From: a virus
IMG/VR virus record: IMGVR_UViG_3300045988_027937
Span: 1-30,848 of that record
Reading direction: 5' to 3' (one strand)
Length of the DNA: 30,848 nt
The notes under the pieces were generated by a model. The model was not told the origin of the DNA. It saw only the letters and a list, made by a program, of their open reading frames with translations, and did not search any database. Below are positions 5,554-30,848 of this stretch, one piece after another (the first letter of the stretch is position 1; every line of letters begins with the position of its first letter). A program made the translations under genes and the position numbers.

Positions 5554-5582
5554 TTGACAAAAAATTCTGCTTGCTGTATAAT
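5554..5582 (+). promoter_or_regulatory. Consensus sigma-A promoter TTGACA-17-TATAAT upstream of the scaffold/capsid genes
   Basis: TTGACA at 5554-5559, 17-nt spacer, TATAAT at 5577-5582, located in the 166-bp gap 5532-5697. Confidence 0.7.
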
Positions 5583-17206: not shown

Positions 17207-17470
17207 ATGAAAGTAAACAAAGAAACAATCGCAAGAACGGTGGTGCTGTTCGTGGCGCTGCTTAACACCGTGCTGAATGCCTGCGGCAAGAACCCGCTAC
17301 CGTTCAGCGACGACGAGGTCTACACCGGAGTGTCTGCCGTGGTGGCAACCGTTGCCGCTGTGTGGGCTTGGTGGAAGAACAACAGTTTTACGGCTGCGGC
17401 TGTCAAAGCAGACGAGGTTTTGAAGATTGAAAAGGCCGAGGGCGGCACCGAAGACGAGGGGGAGCAGTGA
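17207..17470 (+). CDS. Holin (Phage_holin_1 / phi LC3 family)
   Basis: 87 aa with two TM segments. GKNPLPFSDDEVY...AVWAWWKNNSFTAAA is the family signature. It overlaps the endolysin start. Confidence 0.85.
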   Translation: MKVNKETIARTVVLFVALLNTVLNACGKNPLPFSDDEVYTGVSAVVATVAAVWAWWKNNSFTAAAVKADEVLKIEKAEGGTEDEGEQ

Positions 17471-18396
17471 TGGGCACACTTCTTTATTATTGCCGGCAGA
17501 CAACCGAGGCCTGCAAGGGCATTCGGTACGCCAGCAAGAGTCATCCGTATAAGTACGGCACTTCCGGATGTATTTACACCAGCGGCTGTGGGGTGTGCGC
17601 CAGCTTGATGGTTCTGCGAAACTTTGGCGTTGTGCCCGCTACGATGAACACAAAGAAATGGGCGGCCGAGTGTGTCAAGATGGGCGCAAGAGCGGCAGAG
17701 GGTACGAATATGGCCAAAATTGCCGAACACTTCAAAAAGTTTTACGGCATTACCGCCAAGCAGACAAAGAGCACCGAAACGCTGAAAAAGCATTTGAGGA
17801 ACGGTGGGCGCGCCATTATCTGTGTCACCGGCGGCGGTAAGCGGCTGTTCAGCAACAGCGGACATTATATCTATGTTGGCGGCATTGACAAGTCCGGCAA
17901 TTTGATCGTTCTCGACCCGTATTGGTACGACGGGAAATTCACCTTGACGGCACGTAGAAAGGCTTATACAAAGGTCAAGAACGATCGAGAAGTCTATGTG
18001 CAGCCGTCAGCGCTGGCGGCAGACATTGGAAGCATTTGGCTGTTCACAGCACCGAAAGGCGTTAAACCGCTGTGCAGCGTAAACGATGTAAACCACAAGA
18101 AGCCGAAGCCGGTGGCTCCGGTGGTTCACCTTGGCCAGCACATTTTGACCGCCGTTCGTGGAGTTTACAAAGGTTGCGGCGCAGATACCGGGCGCAAAAA
18201 GGTCAGCGACTTGTCAGAGGACGGACAGAAGCACGCTACAACAGCCAAGAGGTCCGCATTTGCGTTTTTGAAAAAAGGGACGATAGTTTCCTTGCTTGAA
18301 GTCAAAAAGGCGAAATCGGGCAACCTGTGGGCTAAAATACCCAGCGGTTGGATTTGCATTTGGGAAAAATCTGACAACACCCTGTTCGTTAAGTAA
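17467..18396 (+). CDS. Endolysin: cysteine-peptidase-type catalytic domain plus C-terminal SH3-like binding domain
   Basis: 309 aa. The SGCGVCASLMVL (Cys) and SGHYIYVGGID (His) pattern points to a cysteine peptidase. The C-terminal GTIVSLLEVKKAKSGNLWAKIPSGWICIW segment is SH3b-like. It follows the holin. Confidence 0.7.
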   Translation: MMGTLLYYCRQTTEACKGIRYASKSHPYKYGTSGCIYTSGCGVCASLMVLRNFGVVPATMNTKKWAAECVKMGARAAEGTNMAKIAEHFKKFYGITAKQTKSTETLKKHLRNGGRAIICVTGGGKRLFSNSGHYIYVGGIDKSGNLIVLDPYWYDGKFTLTARRKAYTKVKNDREVYVQPSALAADIGSIWLFTAPKGVKPLCSVNDVNHKKPKPVAPVVHLGQHILTAVRGVYKGCGADTGRKKVSDLSEDGQKHATTAKRSAFAFLKKGTIVSLLEVKKAKSGNLWAKIPSGWICIWEKSDNTLFVK

Positions 18397-19055: not shown

Positions 19056-19277
19056 GTGGAGCAGATGAGGGCTGACGATGTGGCAGATCCGTCAAGAGAA
19101 CAGTGGGAGCACTTGATAGAGCAGTACATTTTCAACGAGCAGCACCGCCGGATATTCAAGCGCAGGTGGCTTGACGGCGTTTGTTTTGAACCGCTGGCGG
19201 AGGAGTTTGACATTTCTGTCCGGCACGCACAGAACATCGTCTACAAGTGCGAAAAGAAAATTTTGCGCCACATTTGA
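19056..19277 (+). CDS. Sigma-70 region-4-like HTH transcription regulator (candidate late-gene activator)
   Basis: 73 aa. RRIFKRRWLDGVCFEPLAEEFDISVRHAQNIVYKCEKKILRHI fits the region 4.2 pattern (R..f......G.s..eiAe...is...v.....ra..kl). Confidence 0.6.
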   Translation: MEQMRADDVADPSREQWEHLIEQYIFNEQHRRIFKRRWLDGVCFEPLAEEFDISVRHAQNIVYKCEKKILRHI

Positions 19278-19287
19278 CAGCCGGCCG

Positions 19288-19316
19288 TTGACAAGACCGC
19301 CGCAATCGGCTATAAT
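19288..19316 (+). promoter_or_regulatory. Perfect consensus sigma-A promoter TTGACA-17-TATAAT with no ORF behind it
   Basis: TTGACA at 19288-19293, 17-nt spacer, TATAAT at 19311-19316. Confidence 0.7.
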
Positions 19317-19322
19317 GATGTT

Positions 19323-19500
19323 GTTGGTAGAGCGGCCACCCGAAGCGCCGTATTTCTGCTGGACTGAGCGTTTGCTCTGCGCCAGGCAGCGGGTAACTAT
19401 CAACACGTCGGACGGCAACCCGACAAGCATATTCTTTTCTCCTTACAAGAATGTGACGAGCAGAAGGAAACACCCGGTCAACTGGCTGGGTGTTTTCTTT
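19323..19500 (+). ncRNA. Candidate ~180-nt non-coding RNA or attenuator leader
   Basis: It is bounded by the consensus promoter and an intrinsic terminator, has no SD-preceded ORF, and contains local hairpins (for example GTCGG-N8-CCGAC around 19408-19425). Confidence 0.4.
19468..19500 (+). terminator. Rho-independent terminator
   Basis: AAACACCC (19468-19475) pairs with GGGTGTTT (19488-19495), with inner pairs in the loop, followed by TCTTT. Confidence 0.6.
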
Positions 19501-19640
19501 ATGCCAAGAAAGCCACCGCTGGGACACTTGCCGTGGATCACTGACAGATGTGCGGGTGGCATAATCGCCTTTATTTTACGATGAGATTTTGGAAAAGTCA
19601 AAAAATATAGAAAAAGTATTGAAAAAGTATAAAAAAAGTA

Positions 19641-19669
19641 TTGACTTTTGCCGCCGAATGTGGTATTAT
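19641..19669 (+). promoter_or_regulatory. Early promoter TTGACT-17-TATTAT (TGn extended -10) with phased A-tract repeats upstream
   Basis: TTGACT at 19641-19646 and TATTAT at 19664-19669, preceded by TGG. Three AAAAAGTAT repeats lie at 19611-19641. It shares 21 nt (ATAAAAAAAGTATTGACTTTT) with the promoter at 24159. Confidence 0.7.
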
Positions 19670-19725
19670 ATAATCACAGGGAGGGGGAAAGGAACCCCGA
19701 CCGAAGCTGAAAGGAGAACAACACA

Positions 19726-19926
19726 ATGGAAAAGATTTACAGATTTTACAACGACACAAAAACAACATCCAGCATTTTAGAATTGATCGATATTGACATT
19801 GCAACAGGAAAGGTCAAAGGTCGTGACATTTATACTGGTAGAAGGGTAACGGTTAAAAGAAGCAATGTTCTTGATCGAGCATATTTAACTGAATATGAAG
19901 CGGCCAGAAGATTAAAAAAGGCATAA
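19726..19926 (+). CDS. Hypothetical early protein (66 aa)
   Basis: RBS AAAGGAG lies 8 nt upstream of the ATG. Confidence 0.6.
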   Translation: MEKIYRFYNDTKTTSSILELIDIDIATGKVKGRDIYTGRRVTVKRSNVLDRAYLTEYEAARRLKKA

Positions 19927-19961
19927 ATAAAAAAAGTGCTTTATTGAAAGGAGAACAAAAA

Positions 19962-20216
19962 ATGACAGATAGTGAAAGACTTGCAGCAATTAGACAAGCA
20001 TTGAAAGAACACGGATACAGCAACCGCAAGGTTGGCGTTCGGTATGACGGATATGCCATTTGGCTGACAATCAAAGATTTGGCCATTGACATCAAAGAAA
20101 TTGAGCAACTCACAAAAGGCTATGAAAGCTACGAGCGAGACGAGTTCACCGGCGAGATCTTAAGCGGCGGAAACACTTTTGTGTTTGTTAATTACGCTTA
20201 CGGCTTAACGGCTTAA
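19962..20216 (+). CDS. Hypothetical early protein (84 aa)
   Basis: ATG at 19962 after GAAAGGAG. The track ORF starts earlier, at TTG 19944. Confidence 0.6.
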   Translation: MTDSERLAAIRQALKEHGYSNRKVGVRYDGYAIWLTIKDLAIDIKEIEQLTKGYESYERDEFTGEILSGGNTFVFVNYAYGLTA

Positions 20217-20294
20217 ATGCTTCTGCTGGGGTTGAGCACATCAGCCCCAGCCCACATAATAAGCTGGCGAGCTGAAACGCGGAAGGAGAAAGTT

Positions 20295-20687
20295 ATGAAC
20301 GCATATATCGTGAGAACCGCAAAAGACAAGAAAGAGATCAAACGCTTCGACACATTGAAGGACGCTTTTGAAGCTATCGAGCGCTACGAGGAGCGGGACG
20401 AAAAGGCTGGAACATTCACCAAGTGGGCTTATGAAGTCGCCTATGAGGGCACCTGGTATAGTGTGGCTGACATCGACATTCGAAAGAACGGCGAGACCGG
20501 CGACGAGGAGCTGCTTTGGATTGGAGACAACGAACAGGAGGCGCTGGAGGCATTTGAGCGGCTGTGCTGGGAGAACCGTCACAATATGAAGAACCGCCGC
20601 ATTGAACTTCGCAAGATGGATTACGACCCGAGAGACCCGGAACGCTGCATTGAGGGCTACGACGACTTGAAGAAGATGGAGGGCTAA
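20295..20687 (+). CDS. Hypothetical early protein (130 aa, highly charged)
   Basis: ATG at 20295 after GGAAGGAG. The 5' extension in the track has no RBS. Confidence 0.6.
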   Translation: MNAYIVRTAKDKKEIKRFDTLKDAFEAIERYEERDEKAGTFTKWAYEVAYEGTWYSVADIDIRKNGETGDEELLWIGDNEQEALEAFERLCWENRHNMKNRRIELRKMDYDPRDPERCIEGYDDLKKMEG

Positions 20688-20691
20688 TGCG

Positions 20692-21015
20692 ATGGACATT
20701 CACCAGACAATCTACTGGCACCTTGGCGGCTATTCGACAAAGCTGTTCGGCAAAAACAAGCGTGTGCTGCCGGAGTACAGCCGTTATATGGCGGTGCTGC
20801 TGCAACACTTGTTAGACGGAGAGCGGCATTTCTACATTTGCCGCCGACACGGAGAGAGCCGAACAGAGTTGGCATTTTTGAACGCCTTACATATCAAGGG
20901 CGCGTCGGAATTTACTCCGGACAAGATTTGGCTAAAGCTGGACGGCAGACGGAAAGAAGTCAAGCGGCTGATTGAACTTGCCGAGCACTTGGAAAGAGAG
21001 GCGACAAAGCAATGA
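20692..21015 (+). CDS. Hypothetical early protein (107 aa)
   Basis: GGAGGG lies 8 nt upstream of the ATG. Confidence 0.6.
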   Translation: MDIHQTIYWHLGGYSTKLFGKNKRVLPEYSRYMAVLLQHLLDGERHFYICRRHGESRTELAFLNALHIKGASEFTPDKIWLKLDGRRKEVKRLIELAEHLEREATKQ

Positions 21016-21314
21016 GAAATGCAATATCTGCCGTGCTGCGGTGGCTTGGTTGTGCGGTGGCCTGCGTGGGCTTCTGCTTGGTTTCAGAGCGGTTTTGGTG
21101 GTTGCCTATACCGTTTATAGTCTTTGGCAGTTTAACCGTCTTAGCGGGCGTTATGCTTGCCGTAGACGATTGGGAGGACGATGGGCACAAAAAAGACGAC
21201 CAGCAGCAGCCAGTCGCCCGAATTACAGACTTTCAGCAGACCTATTTACTTGCTTGCTCACTTGGCAAGGATGAGGACGGCTCCAGTGCGTCCAACCGGA
21301 GCATTGCGGAGTGA
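21012..21314 (+). CDS. Small membrane protein (two TM segments)
   Basis: ATGA coupling to the previous gene. Its 3' end overlaps the convergent minus-strand ORF by 73 nt. Confidence 0.5.
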   Translation: MRNAISAVLRWLGCAVACVGFCLVSERFWWLPIPFIVFGSLTVLAGVMLAVDDWEDDGHKKDDQQQPVARITDFQQTYLLACSLGKDEDGSSASNRSIAE

Positions 21315-21577
21315 TAGAGCGCTGGAGCGATCACCTGGAGCGTGTCCATTAGCTCGTCCATAAGGTCGAGAACCTGGCAGGTGTCCAATCCGTCAGCGGC
21401 AGCCAAGAAGTCGCTGGAGCCGTCAGTGCTCACAGGCTTGGTGGACTTGCTTGCACCGCCAGTAAGGTGGTCACGGACGATATATAGCCAGGCAAGGCGC
21501 TCAACCGTTGCCCAGGTCGTGTCGTGGTTGCGTTCCAGGTCGAGTATATCTTGATTGAGTATATCCAAAGAAATCAT
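21242..21577 (-). CDS. Hypothetical protein (111 aa)
   Basis: ATG at 21577, preceded on the minus strand by GAAAGGAAAAAG. The track's 21616 start lacks an RBS. Confidence 0.5.
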   Translation of the reverse strand: MISLDILNQDILDLERNHDTTWATVERLAWLYIVRDHLTGGASKSTKPVSTDGSSDFLAAADGLDTCQVLDLMDELMDTLQVIAPALYHSAMLRLDALEPSSSLPSEQASK

Positions 21578-21608
21578 AGCTTTTTCCTTTCGTATTGGGG
21601 GTGATAAA

Positions 21609-21743
21609 ATGAACAAAGAGGTTGTTTTCGTTTACACTTTCGCAGACGGGTATCGCTGCTGGTGTGCTGGGTTCGATAAAGTCGAATCGCAACACGCAGA
21701 AGCAAAGCACGGAAAGCTGGTCAATGTGCAGCGGGAATATTAA
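21609..21743 (+). CDS. Small hypothetical protein (44 aa)
   Basis: It encodes MNKEVVFVYTFADGYRCWCAGFDKVESQHAEAKHGKLVNVQREY. A GGGGGTGA RBS-like sequence lies upstream, and a terminator follows. Confidence 0.4.
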   Translation: MNKEVVFVYTFADGYRCWCAGFDKVESQHAEAKHGKLVNVQREY

Positions 21744-21749
21744 GAAACA

Positions 21750-21780
21750 GGGCAGAGCGAAAGGCTCCGCCCTTTTTTTT
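21750..21780 (+). terminator. Intrinsic terminator (probably bidirectional) between the convergent genes
   Basis: GGGCAGAGC/GCTCCGCCC stem with one mismatch, followed by T8 (21773-21780). On the minus strand the same hairpin is followed by TGTTTCTT. Confidence 0.65.
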
Positions 21781-22339
21781 AGGCTGTCACAACGCCATAA
21801 TTCAGAGAATATCTTGCGAGCAATCCGTCTTGCTCTGCGCAGATCGCAGCAAGGTCATAATCCAGGCACTCTAAGTTTATGCGCTGTCTTTCGACGCGTT
21901 CCAACTCGCAGTCTACCGACTGAACAAGTTTCTTGACTTCACAAGACGCGGCAACTTCGCCAAGTTCGTGCAAGTCTGCGTATGCCTGTTCGTAAAGCTT
22001 CTTGGTTTCGGTTTCCCAAGAGTGCCAGCGTAGAAATGCGTCGCGAACGGCTTTGCGTTTGGTTCCTGCGTCCACTTGCTGGCGGGTATATCCGCGCCAA
22101 GCGTCTGGAATGATCTCCGGGTCTTTGGCGGTCACTTCCGGCAGCAGATGATTGAAGCGCGAGACGAAATACAGGGCAGTTTTTTGATGTTCAAAAAACT
22201 CGGACATCGCCTGGCATTCTTGCTGTCGCTGATAGCCGCAAAGGTTCAAGAATCCGAAATATTCAGCCAGCTGGCTGTGCAGCATTATTCCCTCGATTTG
22301 GTGGGCATTTATGCGCCCAAAAATTTCACTTGCAGTCAT
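21779..22339 (-). CDS. Ferritin-like four-helix-bundle protein (tentative); last gene of the minus-strand operon
   Basis: 186 aa, all-helical. INAHQIEGIMLHSQLAEYFGFLNLCGY...MSEFFEHQK and RWHSWETETKKLYEQAY resemble ferritin/Dps helices A-C, but the metal-ligand spacing is not canonical. Confidence 0.35.
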   Translation of the reverse strand: MTASEIFGRINAHQIEGIMLHSQLAEYFGFLNLCGYQRQQECQAMSEFFEHQKTALYFVSRFNHLLPEVTAKDPEIIPDAWRGYTRQQVDAGTKRKAVRDAFLRWHSWETETKKLYEQAYADLHELGEVAASCEVKKLVQSVDCELERVERQRINLECLDYDLAAICAEQDGLLARYSLNYGVVTA

Positions 22340-22351
22340 AGGCGGCCGCCT

Positions 22352-22753
22352 TTACAGTTTTTCTACCGTCACGGACAGGTTGTTGACAACGGCAGTAGAA
22401 CCGCCAAGCACAAAGGACAGAATGGAACTGTCACATCCGCAGGCATTGCGGAGAATGGCGCTCACTGTCAGCGTAACGGTTTCGTTTACAGCGGCTGTGG
22501 TGGCGCTTGAAGTTGCGCCGATCACGGAGACGCCGTCCTTTTGGGCTGTCAAAGAAACAGTGCCAGCAGCAGGAGGCGTAACGGTGGCCACGGCGGTCAC
22601 CTTGTAATAGCCGCTTCCGCAAAGCGTGATTGTGTTGCCGTCCTGCCGGATGTTACAGCCAAAGCGGCGTGAGGTCACTCCAACAGGAATAACGCTGCCG
22701 GCCGTGATTGTGGGTTCGGTGGTATTTGTTACATAAATTGCAGATTTTGACAT
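22352..22753 (-). CDS. BclA-C-terminal-domain / C1q-TNF-like jelly-roll protein (stand-alone, no collagen repeats)
   Basis: 133 aa. The pattern AGSVIPVGVTSRRFGCNIRQDGNTITLCGSGYYKVTAVATVTP..GTVSLTAQKDGVSVIGATSSATTAAVNETVTLTVSAIL...LSVTVEKL is typical of this fold. RBS GAAAGGAAAAA. Confidence 0.45.
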   Translation of the reverse strand: MSKSAIYVTNTTEPTITAGSVIPVGVTSRRFGCNIRQDGNTITLCGSGYYKVTAVATVTPPAAGTVSLTAQKDGVSVIGATSSATTAAVNETVTLTVSAILRNACGCDSSILSFVLGGSTAVVNNLSVTVEKL

Positions 22754-22781
22754 TTTAGTTTTTTCCTTTCGTAAAAGATTA

Positions 22782-22807
22782 GCGGGAGCAGCTTTTGCCG
22801 CCCCCGC
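22782..22807 (-). terminator. Strand-specific hairpin (partial terminator/attenuator) inside the minus-strand operon
   Basis: The minus-strand RNA GCGGGGGCGGC-AAAA-GCUGCUCCCGC forms an 11-bp stem with two G-U pairs, then UAAUCUUUU. On the plus-strand RNA the same positions are A-C mismatches. Confidence 0.4.
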
Positions 22808-22840
22808 CGGGTTAAATCCTCGCCGTGGTGGCGTGTGTTG

Positions 22841-23416
22841 TTAAATGTTGCAGCAGCTGTTACAGCCGCAGAACGGAGACGGGCCCGCATTGTACGCGTA
22901 GCTTGTCGGATAGCGCACGACGCCGCAAAAACGGCTGTCCATTTCAAGGCTTGTCACCTTGTCACGCAGCGCCTGGATCTCGTTCGTCTGAATCAGCTGC
23001 CGGGTGGCTTCGCCCTCTGCGTGAATCGCCGTTGTGATGTCGCAAGCGTTCTGATTCATCTGTGCAGACAGGTTGGCCGTCGCAAGCTGGTTCTTGCAGC
23101 AGCAGTCTGCCAGCTGGCCTTGGATTGCTCGACCCTCGGTCAAAATGCTGTTGTTCAGCGCGAAAGTGCTGTCGCAAATGCCGTTGCCGATAGTGTTCAG
23201 CCGGTCGTTCAGCTGGCCGAATTGCTGGCCGAACAGGATCTCCTGCTGGCTGGCAGCGGTTGCGTACTGGCCGAATTCGCCCTGTCGGTTCCAGCCGTTG
23301 CCGTTGAAGCCCCAAAACAGGAAGAGCAGGATCACCCACCAAGCACCGTTGCCGCCAAATGCGCCATTGTCGTCACCTACGGCTGCCCGCAGGTCGGAAA
23401 GTGAATAGTTATCCAT
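22841..23416 (-). CDS. Cys-rich single-pass membrane protein with a Gly-rich/hydrophobic YjcZ-like N-terminus
   Basis: 191 aa. It contains GAFGGNGAWWVILLFLFWGFNGNG, internal degenerate repeats each containing Cys (GICD, DCCCKN, NACDITTAI), and a C-terminal FCGCNSCCNI. RBS GAAAGGAAAA. Confidence 0.55.
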   Translation of the reverse strand: MDNYSLSDLRAAVGDDNGAFGGNGAWWVILLFLFWGFNGNGWNRQGEFGQYATAASQQEILFGQQFGQLNDRLNTIGNGICDSTFALNNSILTEGRAIQGQLADCCCKNQLATANLSAQMNQNACDITTAIHAEGEATRQLIQTNEIQALRDKVTSLEMDSRFCGVVRYPTSYAYNAGPSPFCGCNSCCNI

Positions 23417-23466
23417 TTTTTTGTTTTCCTTTCGTTAGATTTTTATAAAATGGGCTGTGCACCGCC

Positions 23467-23703
23467 TCATTTTAACATTGATTGGATTTGCTCCGCTTGG
23501 GCTTTCAACTGTTGAAATTGCTGTTGACTCATCTGCCCGGTGTTGAGCAAATTCTGTACAATCGCCTGCGGGTCTTTCCCACCAAGGGCTTTGCGGAATT
23601 CAGCAAGCTGCTGCAAGAAATTCCCGCCGTTATTTGCCGGCAGGTTCTGCGGCTGCTGCCCGCTGTTTGGTTTTCGCATTGCGTCCAGAATCGGGTTGCG
23701 CAT
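23467..23703 (-). CDS. Small Q-rich protein (78 aa)
   Basis: Strong SD GGAGGAG lies 7 nt upstream of the ATG at 23703. The start sits 74 nt inside the upstream ORF. Confidence 0.55.
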   Translation of the reverse strand: MRNPILDAMRKPNSGQQPQNLPANNGGNFLQQLAEFRKALGGKDPQAIVQNLLNTGQMSQQQFQQLKAQAEQIQSMLK

Positions 23704-24037
23704 TGATGATCTCCTCCAGTCTTGCTATGCGCTGTTCAAGGTCTGCGTTTGTCGGCTGTTGCGTCTGTTCGTGCGGTGTGATGTTGAATGCCGACACAGT
23801 CTTGTAACCTGCGCCGTCTGTCTTTACAAGCCACACAAGCGGCTGGCTTTCGTCCAGCAGTAATGCGCTGCTGTTCGGTGCCAGCGGGTAGGCCTGCGCT
23901 CCGTTCTCTCCGTTGACAGTGACCACATCACAACGCTGTTGCATTGCTTGATTTTGCTGCATTGCCGCAAGTCTGTCAGCGTATGGATTTCCGTAGGGCT
24001 GCACGCCCTGCATATATCCGTTGAATGTGTTATACAT
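23630..24037 (-). CDS. Hypothetical protein with a Q/N/Y/G-rich N-terminus, beta-rich core and C-terminal coiled coil; first gene of the minus-strand operon
   Basis: 135 aa. RBS GGAGGG lies 8 nt upstream of the ATG at 24037. Confidence 0.6.
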   Translation of the reverse strand: MYNTFNGYMQGVQPYGNPYADRLAAMQQNQAMQQRCDVVTVNGENGAQAYPLAPNSSALLLDESQPLVWLVKTDGAGYKTVSAFNITPHEQTQQPTNADLEQRIARLEEIINAQPDSGRNAKTKQRAAAAEPAGK

Positions 24038-24158
24038 TGACTGTTCCCTCCGTTTCTATCTCTATTTTAGAATTTTACAGTTTGTATTTCCACGAGCATA
24101 TCACGCAAGATTTATACCGATTGTATAAAAGAAATATAAGAAAGATATAAAAAAAGTA

Positions 24159-24187
24159 TTGACTTTTCCGCTTTTTGGGTGTAATAT
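24159..24187 (+). promoter_or_regulatory. Promoter TTGACT-17-TAATAT for the replication/recombination operon
   Basis: TTGACT at 24159-24164 and TAATAT at 24182-24187. The upstream 21 nt are identical to the promoter at 19641. Confidence 0.7.
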
Positions 24188-24234
24188 AGTAAATGTCAAA
24201 GGGAGAGTAACTTCCAGACGAAAGGAGAATATAT

Positions 24235-24495
24235 ATGAAAGAAATTAGACGAATTTCCGGCGCAAAAGTAAGACAGGCTTGCATTGAACACGATTGGTTC
24301 ACTTGCGGAGATATTGACGCATACAATGCTCTTTTTGAATTCGTAGGTGACATTAATCGTGAGGGCAAAAATGTTAGCAAGGCTCGACTTGAGTGCATTG
24401 CTGAAATGATAAAAGATAATAGCGAAACGGATTATAACATTCCAGAGATTATGTTCGTACTGAACGCAGAATGTTGCACCACTTATTTTGAATGA
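24235..24495 (+). CDS. Hypothetical protein (86 aa)
   Basis: RBS AAAGGAG lies upstream of the ATG. Confidence 0.6.
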   Translation: MKEIRRISGAKVRQACIEHDWFTCGDIDAYNALFEFVGDINREGKNVSKARLECIAEMIKDNSETDYNIPEIMFVLNAECCTTYFE

Positions 24496-24809: not shown

Positions 24810-24864
24810 AAAGATAAGATAGCGCCGGGCGGGAACAAAGCCCGGCAAGAAAGGAGAACAAGAA

Positions 24865-25275
24865 ATGAACAGATGTGCGATTTGTGGCCGTGTCGTTGAC
24901 GGCTGGGAGATCAGCGGCGGCGTGTGTGACAGCTGCGCAGAAGCTATGGACGATGACAAGATGGTTTGCCCGATTTGCGGCAAAGAACATTACAAAGAGG
25001 ATATGCCGCACGGCGTTTGCTCCGACTGCTTGGGCGAGACTGCTTGGAAGTTTGACACAGTCAAGGAGATCGTCGGAGACGAAAAAGAGAGCGTTCAGCT
25101 ATCTGCGTTGGTAGTTTCAATGTTAGACCCGGACGAAATCGAGGAAATCTGCGAGAGAGAAATCCGAAAGGCTGTTGAAGCCGGAGAGGTTGACCTTTCG
25201 CCGGTGATAGAAGCGGACGAGGACTGGTTCTGCGAGCGCTTCATTGAACACGATAGAAAGGAGGGTGAGAGATGA
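24865..25275 (+). CDS. Zinc-ribbon protein (two CxxC...CxxC pairs) with an acidic C-terminal half
   Basis: The Cys pairs are CAICG...CDSC and CPICG...CSDC. RBS GAAAGGAG. Confidence 0.6.
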   Translation: MNRCAICGRVVDGWEISGGVCDSCAEAMDDDKMVCPICGKEHYKEDMPHGVCSDCLGETAWKFDTVKEIVGDEKESVQLSALVVSMLDPDEIEEICEREIRKAVEAGEVDLSPVIEADEDWFCERFIEHDRKEGER

Positions 25276-30435: not shown

Positions 30436-30848
30436 ATGAAAGTTGAAATGCGAGCGCTGGACAGTATCAAACCGTATGAGAAAAACGCGAAAAAGCACGA
30501 TCAAACCCAAATTGACAATGTAGCCGAGAGCATTCGGCAGTATGGATTTGTGCAGCCGATTGTGGTTGATCGTGACGGAGTAATCGTGATCGGTCATTGT
30601 CGAGCACTTGGAGCGAAAAAACTCGGATTGAAAGAGGTGCCGTGCGTCTGCGTTGATGACTTGACGGAAGAGCAAGTGAACGCATTGCGTATCGTCGACA
30701 ACAAGACAAATGAGAGCGATTGGGATTTTGATTTGCTCGAGCAAGAGTTGCCGGAAGTCGATTTGAGCGATTTTTGCTTTCAATTTGATTTTTTGCATAA
30801 ATGTGATGATAATTTTATATCCGACGAAATTGCCCACCCAAAAAAAAC
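30436..30848 (+). CDS. ParB/Srx-like nuclease domain; 5' part of a ParB-domain/DNA-methyltransferase fusion gene that continues at base 2 after removing the 99-bp overlap
   Basis: ATG at 30436 lies 10 nt after AGGAGG (30421-30426). The translation MKVEMRALDSIKPYEKNAKKHDQTQIDNVAESIRQYGFVQPIVVDRDGVIVIGHCRALGAKKLG fits the ParB-like N-terminal pattern. There is no stop before the window end, and the frame is continuous with 14..937 (30436 maps to -313, same phase as 14). Confidence 0.85.
   Translation, partial: MKVEMRALDSIKPYEKNAKKHDQTQIDNVAESIRQYGFVQPIVVDRDGVIVIGHCRALGAKKLGLKEVPCVCVDDLTEEQVNALRIVDNKTNESDWDFDLLEQELPEVDLSDFCFQFDFLHKCDDNFISDEIAHPKK
30750..30848. repeat. 99-bp terminal direct repeat, copy 2
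   Basis: Identical to bases 1-99. Confidence 0.95.

Follow-up and report, generated by a model that had tools for sequence, protein, structure and literature searches.

Small phage antisense RNAs that cover the ribosome-binding site (RBS) of a phage gene are known from P22 (Sar) and from P1 and P7 (c4). In Firmicutes, the small RNAs (sRNAs) RNAIII (of Staphylococcus aureus) and RsaE/RoxS occlude Shine–Dalgarno (SD) sequences by means of pyrimidine-rich hairpin loops. DapZ and MicL represent a class of sRNAs of the 3′ untranslated region type that have an internal promoter, and pAD1 par (RNA I and RNA II) and the Bacillus type I toxin–antitoxin loci are composed of convergent small units with one terminator. 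To our knowledge, few regulatory RNAs have been described from lytic phages and almost none from phages of Gram-positive gut anaerobes. Phage-encoded sRNAs are still rare in the literature; lambda OOP, PreS (LPR1), and VpdS of a Vibrio phage shape the lytic programme, and PreS and VpdS have host targets (bioRxiv 10.1101/2024.10.31.621285). Here we describe an RNA locus in IMG/VR virus record IMGVR_UViG_3300045988_027937, of which positions 1 to 30,848 (the window, 30,848 nt) were analysed. By comparison of its sequence with that of relatives, 19288–19502 of the + strand is a self-contained gene for a predicted non-coding RNA of ~180 nt. We consider it possible, at a probability of about 0.4, that this RNA acts in trans as an 'anti-start-site' sRNA that silences the translation of the early genes of the phage.

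The original prediction, made from the letters of the window, placed between a perfect sigma-A promoter and an intrinsic terminator either a stand-alone RNA of ~180 nt or a leader of the early genes, and proposed that homologous regions of related phages be compared. Relatives were retrieved by scans with the neighbouring protein, a 17-mer from the terminator, and a conserved 23-mer, affording 21 versions of the region that differ from one another; the contigs that hold them, ~20–35 kb long, are viral or metagenomic and come from the human gut. These variants retain both the promoter and the fold. The exact arrangement TTGACA-17-TATAAT occurs twice in the window, at the sRNA promoter (P1, Table 1) and at 5554–5582, and never in 100 shuffles, in agreement with the perfect promoter that had been claimed. 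Among the variants the −35 hexamer of P1 is invariant, the spacing is always 17 nt, and the −10 hexamer reads TATAAT or TAAAAT, with the spacer taking three unrelated sequences. P1 is thus a predicted sigma-A promoter (−35 and −10 hexamers at 17 ± 1 nt), whose hexamers and spacing are kept independently of the spacer sequence. The second perfect promoter, also on the + strand, lies in the 166 nt that precede the genes for the scaffold and the major head protein, and is followed by a ~110-nt leader of modest structure (z −2.3). Its placement suggests that the phage saves the perfect promoter for genes expressed at very high levels, and the 'late' structural genes appear to be driven by a consensus host-type promoter.

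At its downstream end the gene is closed by terminator T1, composed of a 20-bp stem and the tail UUUUCUUUAU at 19493–19502. The stem first recognized, at 19468–19495, proved to be the core of a longer hairpin, and its distance from the −10 box is 152 nt, close to the ~150 nt originally given. T1 was overlooked by a simple terminator scan on account of its G·U pairs and the loop definition used there. The pairing probability of the helix is 0.91–1.0 in every variant, and 99.7% of the T1 cells of the alignment pair on the + strand (72 of them as G·U) as compared to 78.4% when they are read on the − strand. All 72 variable cells of the 5′ arm are alternations between A-U and G·U or between C-G and U·G. 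The comparison therefore shows a stable GC-rich hairpin with a U-tract, whose changes among the variants are compatible with wobble pairing, as in an intrinsic terminator. Between the stop codon of the last late gene (19277) and the −35 hexamer of P1 lie 10 nt that hold no terminator, so late transcripts should end at T1. From the sequence, T1 probably also terminates the late operon, in which case the same RNA sequence would also form the 3′ end of late transcripts.

The RNA between these signals is predicted to be highly structured, and its structure depends on the strand. For the window (19322–19505) the minimum free energy is −77 kcal/mol, with a z score of −4.97 on the + strand and −1.38 on the − strand. 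Independent folds of all variants converge on the same architecture (domain 1, hairpin 2, hairpin 3, terminator), and a covariance model recovers the 21 variants. In the model-based alignment 94.5% of cells pair, compared with 37–54% in slid controls and 85% for the same pairs read on the minus strand. Double-sided changes are found at 5 pairs of the 21-variant alignment; because the variant set is shallow (effective sequence number 1.3), this covariation is supportive and not decisive, and the strand test is the stronger evidence for structure. The closing helix of domain 1 takes in the predicted 5′ end of the RNA, and one of its pairs varies compatibly between G·U, G-C, and A-U. The interior of the domain is plastic, with one hairpin present in two unrelated sequence versions and ~45 nt missing from three variants. 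A CCCR/YGGG pairing that changes compatibly between the long and short forms of the domain is possible on sequence grounds. Hairpin 2 provides the clearest compensatory case, an exchange of U-A for G-C in 8 of the 21 variants, and in four variants a 15-nt insertion extends this hairpin.

Several lines of comparison set the region apart from coding DNA. Its intergenic sequence in the relatives is 79–92% identical to that of the window, as against 95–97% for the neighbouring protein, and hence evolves faster than its coding flank. Indels of 1, 2, 4, 5, 7, 15, and ~45 nt are scattered across the transcribed part of the 21 variants. As had been noted from the window alone, no open reading frame (ORF) preceded by an SD lies between promoter and terminator, and the only ORF that runs through the region is 19171..19584; both statements hold for the + strand. 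A + strand protein encoded by this ORF was rejected, since its frame is broken by the indels of 1, 2, 4, 5, and 7 nt among the relatives. Thus, the locus combines a conserved promoter, a strand-specific conserved fold, and some compensatory changes with no coding signal, as would be found for a structured non-coding RNA gene, and the comparison of the 21 variants supports the stand-alone RNA of the original prediction.

The RNA had not been matched to a family by eye, and a search of Rfam 15, whose families take in riboswitches, 6S, phi29 pRNA, tmRNA, and phage motifs already described, likewise produced no match in the whole window at gathering thresholds; under permissive settings, the best sub-threshold matches (E 0.55–8) concern the terminator hairpin only. 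ARAGORN detected no tRNA or tmRNA in the window, and a tRNA-like reading of GUUGGUAGAGC was rejected on this result and because its GAGC is not conserved. As far as the sequence searches reach, the RNA belongs to a single narrow clade of phages. Scans of IMG/VR with the 17-mer and the 23-mer returned the same clade only, plus chance matches that the covariance model rejected, a 22-mer scan of 185,579 genomes gave 0 matches, and none was obtained when the region was compared by blastn with 50,697 phage records. No such RNA was present at 44 loci with more distant homologues of the 73-aa protein encoded just upstream, nor at loci L018–L021.

The proposed function follows from hairpin 3 and from the start sites of the early genes. 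The 10-nt pyrimidine loop of hairpin 3 reads UUCUCCUUAC in the window and UUCUCCUUUC in 15 of the 21 variants. Its core CUCCUU is kept in 20 of them, on a stem for which four sequences occur (UUCUU/AAGAA, UUUUU/AAAAA, AUUUUU/AAAAGU, and UUACU/AGUAA). Within the loop lies CUCCUUUC, which we take to be the sense sequence of the anti-SD tail of 16S rRNA and beyond which the loop continues on either side. Together with the 5′ arm of the hairpin (...CAUAUUCUU), the loop is antisense to GAAAGGAGAA followed by 8 nt and AUG; written out in full, the antisense target is (U)UGAAAGGAGAA + AAAGAAU + AUG, which amounts to an entire start site. The 10-mer GAAAGGAGAA has exactly four copies in the window (0.06 expected), all situated 6–8 nt upstream of start codons (19726, 19962, 24235, and 24865). 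The genes that bear it are the first two behind the early promoter P_E1, the first behind a second early promoter, P_E2 (at 24159), and one two genes further in that block (24865). The third gene behind P_E1 (20295) has GGAAGGAGAA at its start site, and in relatives this site offers 11–14 contiguous nucleotides complementary to the sRNA. GGAGAA is absent from the start sites of the late genes of the window. When the start sites of 41 genes were ranked by pairing with the consensus hairpin, the early ones made up five of the best six. Likewise, the longest complementarity between each cognate sRNA and its own 6-kb neighbourhood (10–14 contiguous nucleotides) lies at early start sites in 10 of 13 loci, so that by sequence the conserved, predicted single-stranded loop resembles a seed for these sites.

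The motif GAAAGGAGAA stays with the promoter and leader even where the first early gene is another gene, and the P_E1 and P_E2 regions look, from their sequences, like a duplicated promoter–leader–RBS cassette. P_E2 is preceded by the same arrangement of 11-nt phased A-tract repeats. Its region (24118–24237, + strand) reads TTGACTTTT-...-TAATAT and has the start site GAAAGGAGAA, as does that of the promoter at 19641. In one relative (L013), the first cassette is replaced by a copy that resembles the second.

These features suggest a model for how the RNA could act. The sRNA would be made from the consensus promoter P1 and, later, also by read-through from the late operon. Pairing in trans with the early start sites would begin at the exposed loop of hairpin 3 and spread to the 5′ arm, covering both the SD and the AUG, and a start site covered in this way would no longer bind the 30S subunit. 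As the sRNA accumulates during infection, early protein synthesis would be shut off, and the outcome would be an early-to-late switch at the RNA level. A more specific version of this proposal, which we regard as doubtful, is that a private extended RBS motif (GAAAGGAGAA-N-AUG) and an abundant sRNA that outcompetes the 16S anti-SD tail constitute an off-switch for the translation of one class of genes. Such a switch would time the early-to-late transition, and at the start of infection an antisense transcript converging on it from an early-type promoter would perhaps buffer it (see below).

A number of observations weigh against silencing of the early start sites. Seed and target do not covary: the loops of the window and of relatives L001 and L007 have changed (in the window by a U-to-A substitution), and their target motifs have not. 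An anti-SD loop pairs with any Firmicute start site, since each of these has an SD, and the energetic edge of the early sites over ordinary SDs is a few kcal/mol only. The complementarity is possibly the mirror image of a real start site on the minus strand, under a convergent promoter. In addition, the conserved domain 1, hairpin 2, and a conserved 60-nt block downstream of T1 are left unexplained by the model. Neither the window's own sRNA (9–12-mers only) nor the conserved block shows more exact complementarity to the remainder of the genome than chance would give. Duplex predictions for the whole sRNA against the start sites, made without accessibility, were uninformative and consisted of long interrupted duplexes.

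The strongest competitor, although still unlikely, is a cis-antisense module, and it draws on two features that escaped the original prediction along with the missing terminator of the late operon, namely a putative convergent promoter on the minus strand and an SD–ATG opposite hairpin 3. According to this explanation, the minus transcript leaks past the reverse side of T1 into the sRNA gene, the sigma-like gene upstream of it, and the lysis genes. The sRNA, as its perfect antisense partner, would neutralize this transcript and occlude its start through duplex formation, cleavage by RNase III, and promoter collision; the reverse, in which the minus transcript sponges the sRNA early in infection, is possible, and a cis-antisense role could coexist with action in trans. 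The hexamers of the minus promoter are kept while its spacer varies, and TTGACTTTT has only three copies in the window, at this promoter (19601..19573), at P_E1, and at P_E2. On this evidence the minus promoter looks like a third early-type promoter, with P_E1 pointing away from it on the far side of the A-tract repeats. The minus transcript would start with the 60-nt block, for which the minus strand gives the better fold (z −2.49; −0.14 on the + strand) and which is probably, on the folding model, the 5′ hairpin of that transcript. It would then meet T1, which is weakened in this direction (78% of cells paired, poor U-tract), making read-through plausible. An SD of the early type followed by 8 nt and ATG is present on the minus strand in 20 of 21 variants, yet the ORF that it opens is conserved neither in length (18–112 aa) nor in sequence, and there is no evident product to regulate. 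Selection has moreover maintained structure on the + strand and not on the minus strand, a conserved multi-domain fold is superfluous for a simple cis role, and the minus promoter lies in AT-rich repeats, where matches to the hexamers come more easily. The same predicted convergent promoters, common terminator, and strong minus-strand SD–ATG, with an antisense partner transcribed from a consensus promoter, could suggest a type I toxin–antitoxin-like pair, in which the minus strand encodes a hydrophobic peptide of ~20 aa (MLVGLLSDLLIVTRSLVGVE) and the sRNA is the antitoxin. In 12 of 21 variants the ORF does give peptides of 18–27 aa with a similar N-terminus, but between close relatives its length goes from 18 to 112 aa. 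The variable sites in this ORF are distributed 5/8/5 by codon position, with no excess at third positions, and its substitutions (V to G, D to A, and L to P, in either direction) are those that preserve the + strand hairpin. No conserved small hydrophobic toxin ORF was thus found, and a minus-strand toxin, or any functional peptide, was rejected on the length jumps, the lack of codon bias, and substitutions that follow the RNA hairpin. As the phage genome is circular and no integrase was found in it, an addiction role is not evident either, and we hold such a pair to be most improbable.

Two further explanations leave the early start sites aside, and a third returns to the leader of the original prediction. 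About as unlikely as the cis-antisense module is a trans-acting RNA directed against the host, either an sRNA that base-pairs with host mRNAs, in the manner of PreS or VpdS, or a decoy or sponge that binds a defence system or an RNA-binding protein of the host, for which the likeness to early start sites would be incidental. It would accommodate the conserved domain 1 (CCAGGCAGYGGGU) and hairpin 2, which lie outside the early-gene model, and the very strong expression predicted from P1, given that the one remaining perfect promoter is that of the scaffold and capsid genes. There are also documented phage sRNAs whose targets lie in the host (bioRxiv 10.1101/2024.10.31.621285). The RNA shows no similarity, however, to the host CRISPR repeat, to tRNA, or to any Rfam family, and it is limited to one narrow clade of phages. 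A replication-origin element, in which a structured RNA serves as primer or activator beside an inverted repeat and 11-nt phased repeats, is very improbable. In the lactococcal phage c2, a transcribed RNA has been proposed as an origin primer or activator. Here, the late and early operons are separated by a non-coding region in which 11-nt repeats resembling iterons occur together with an AT-rich stretch and an imperfect palindrome of 49 bp that hardly varies. The same 11-nt A-tract repeats nevertheless precede the second early promoter at 24159 and so look like upstream elements of promoters; the phage has its own primase and helicase, the strong T1 separates the RNA from the block, and the GC skew gives no origin signal. 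As improbable as the toxin–antitoxin-like pair is a cis-acting leader (attenuator, riboswitch, or antitermination RNA) that controls read-through into the early genes. The RNA does lie upstream of the early operon in the same orientation, but T1 is predicted to form constitutively in all 21 variants (0.91–1.0) with no conserved competing pairing, and no part of the RNA has more indels than the linker in front of it. The first early gene is separated from T1 by a conserved strong promoter that has its own leader, and no riboswitch or aptamer family was matched in Rfam. This part of the original prediction has accordingly been set aside. An antiterminator pairing of the hairpin 3 loop with the purine-rich 5′ arm of T1 was also rejected, being inconsistent across the variants.

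Table 1. Features of the sRNA locus and candidate early start sites (positions in the window)
Feature	Position	Strand	Remarks
Promoter P1 of the sRNA, TTGACA-17-TATAAT	19288-19316	+	score 12/12
Structured sRNA, ~180 nt (predicted)	19322-19502	+	predicted transcription start 19322-19324; predicted 3′ end in the U-tract
Domain 1	19322-19405	+	9-bp closing helix 19322-19330 / 19397-19405; variable multibranch interior; conserved CCAGGCAGYGGGU
Hairpin 2 (GUCGG...CCGAC)	19407-19424	+	99% of cells pair
Hairpin 3, putative 'anti-start-site' hairpin	19428-19455	+	loop 19437-19446
SD + 8 nt + ATG, mirror of hairpin 3	19428..19446, ATG 19430	-	opens non-conserved ORF
Intrinsic terminator T1	19460-19504; core stem 19468-19495, U-tract 19493-19502	+	-28.5 kcal/mol, z -7.15
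Near-invariant 60-nt block, imperfect inverted repeat	19505-19565	-	nearly identical in 20 variants, including the most divergent
Convergent early-type promoter (putative), TTGACT-17-TAAAAT	19601..19573	-	hexamers conserved, spacer variable
Phased A-tract / 11-nt repeats GAAAAAGTAT	19602-19640	.	common to both divergent promoters
Early promoter P_E1, TTGACT-17-TG-TATTAT	19641-19669	+	conserved, extended -10
Start of early gene 19726-19926, candidate target	19707-19728	+	GAAAGGAGAA...ATG
Start of early gene 19962-20216, candidate target	19944-19964	+	TTGAAAGGAGAA...ATG; 15/17 match to consensus-hairpin antisense
Start of early gene 20295-20687, candidate target	20281-20297	+	GGAAGGAGAAA...ATG
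Start of first gene behind second early promoter, candidate target	24220-24237	+	GAAAGGAGAA...ATG
Start of gene 24865-25275, candidate target	24849-24867	+	GAAAGGAGAA...ATG

The conserved block shares a short sequence with domain 1. The sequence GGCCACCCG, in a hairpin loop of domain 1 (sRNA 19333–19341), is the complement of CGGGTGGCC, which most relatives have in the block's + strand and for which the window reads CGGGTGGCA (19553–19561). The same GGCCACCCG is identical to minus-strand sequence of the block. A resemblance of the block to the 3′ end of 16S rRNA (UGGAUCAC and AGGUGCGG) was considered and rejected, the first motif lying in the variable apex of the block.

Positions 1–97 of the window are identical to 30750–30846, and this terminal repeat of 97 nt marks a complete circular assembly of ~30.75 kb. 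The window is, by its sequence, the complete circular genome of a siphovirus from the human gut; the nearest cultured phages, by capsid protein, are siphoviruses of C. perfringens (56% identity). Matches to PHROG and Pfam give a gene order that begins with a methyltransferase, the small and large terminase, portal, scaffold, and major head protein, and continues with tape measure and tail genes, a C39-like endolysin (17467–18396), and small membrane proteins. The gene for the 73-aa protein (19056–19277, + strand) ends the lysis operon. The original prediction called it a putative late regulator, and a sub-threshold similarity to sigma-70/ECF region 4 is all that stands behind this label. Region 4 of sigma-70 is the helix-turn-helix that binds the −35 element, and a free-standing region 4 domain beside three promoters that have TTGAC(A/T) in common is suggestive. 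Distant homologues of the protein (40–63% identity) sit in phages and prophage-like contigs of Clostridia metagenome-assembled genomes (MAGs); among phage-like contigs that were binned with Clostridia of the gut and rumen they are widespread, and the genes downstream of them vary. Beyond the sRNA region are small genes without assigned function (19726–21314). A leftward cluster of five genes on the − strand (21242–24037), with its own terminators at ~21200 and ~21750, lies between the two rightward early blocks and gave no functional matches except one weak match to a BclA C-terminal (C1q-like) domain. The second rightward block, from 24235, encodes Sak4, SSB, a primase, and a VapE-type helicase. 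Neither an integrase nor a repressor was recognised among the genes of the window.

The 5′ part of the conserved block is a CRISPR protospacer. A 30-nt spacer found in two human-gut contigs (L101 and L106), within an array of 40-plus repeats (repeat GTTTGAGAATAGTGTAAATTCATAAGGTAGTTAAAC), matches it at 19504–19532 of the window. In L101 (5990–8900) the array adjoins cas9, cas1, and csn2 of a type II-A system; the cas9 frame is seemingly split into two overlapping ORFs. Five more spacers of this array match the window, around 4492, 7346, 7904, 18064, and 25430, and others match relatives. From these matches, the L101 bacterium would be a host or former host of the phage clade. An RNA anti-CRISPR that mimics the repeat was rejected, because, in its best local alignment with the type II-A repeat of the contig that carries the spacer, the sRNA scores lower than the mean of shuffled sequences. 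Three phage contigs of the clade (L056, L057, and L075) were binned in MAGs that bear the labels Bacteroidaceae, Akkermansia, and Gastranaerophilales. Because promoters and SDs are of the Firmicute type and the CRISPR match is to a type II-A system, these labels are most likely binning artefacts and not hosts.

The locus thus offers a cleanly bounded sRNA gene, with a perfect promoter, a strong terminator, and 21 natural variants, together with a falsifiable hypothesis about its targets. Were the target hypothesis true, developmental timing would be imposed at translation initiation by an anti-SD mimic, and the phage would provide a compact orthogonal pair of RBS and anti-RBS for Firmicutes. 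If the private RBS were real, the temporal switch would be made of RNA and not of a repressor or a sigma factor. Should the cis-antisense module be correct instead, the locus would be a compact switch of convergent promoters at the boundary between late and early genes. Phage sRNAs that block ribosome-binding sites are already known, and the new part of the proposal is the combination of a private RBS with an anti-SD mimic.

Comparison with described systems places the RNA among several of them, although it is homologous to none. Lambda OOP, PreS, and VpdS are, like it, short regulatory phage RNAs with their own promoter and terminator; unlike it, they are Hfq-dependent or cis-antisense and belong to phages of Gram-negative bacteria, whereas the host here is an uncultured gut Firmicute, and no homology was found. 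The pAD1 par and Bacillus type I loci resemble it in the convergent units predicted here, the common terminator, and an SD–ATG opposite an antisense RNA, but the phage locus lacks a conserved toxin ORF, and its terminator is optimised for a single strand. With DapZ and MicL it has in common a promoter at the end of an upstream operon, a shared terminator, and two sources of the RNA (its own promoter and a longer mRNA), of which processing from the late mRNA would here be a prediction. Sar and c4, to which there is no homology of sequence or structure and no Rfam match, have their own promoters, as it does, and adjoin the genes that they control, blocking an SD and start-codon region of the phage as proposed for the present RNA; c4, in addition, lies just upstream of its target operon in the same orientation, as here. 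Sar, by contrast, acts purely as the cis-antisense RNA to a real gene (ant), and c4 is processed from the transcript of its target and serves lysogenic immunity, whereas no lysogeny module was seen here. The action proposed for the present RNA differs from both in that it would occur in trans, on several dispersed early start sites, by way of a generic extended anti-SD loop. In this respect the RNA would come close to RNAIII and RsaE/RoxS, which expose a C/U-rich loop of a stable hairpin as a seed for SDs; like it, they consist of several hairpins and end at an intrinsic terminator. Those RNAs are chromosomal and use UCCC or CCCC motifs, whereas the phage loop reproduces the core of the 16S anti-SD, CUCCUUUC, and the 5′ arm of the hairpin would cover the spacer and the AUG as well.

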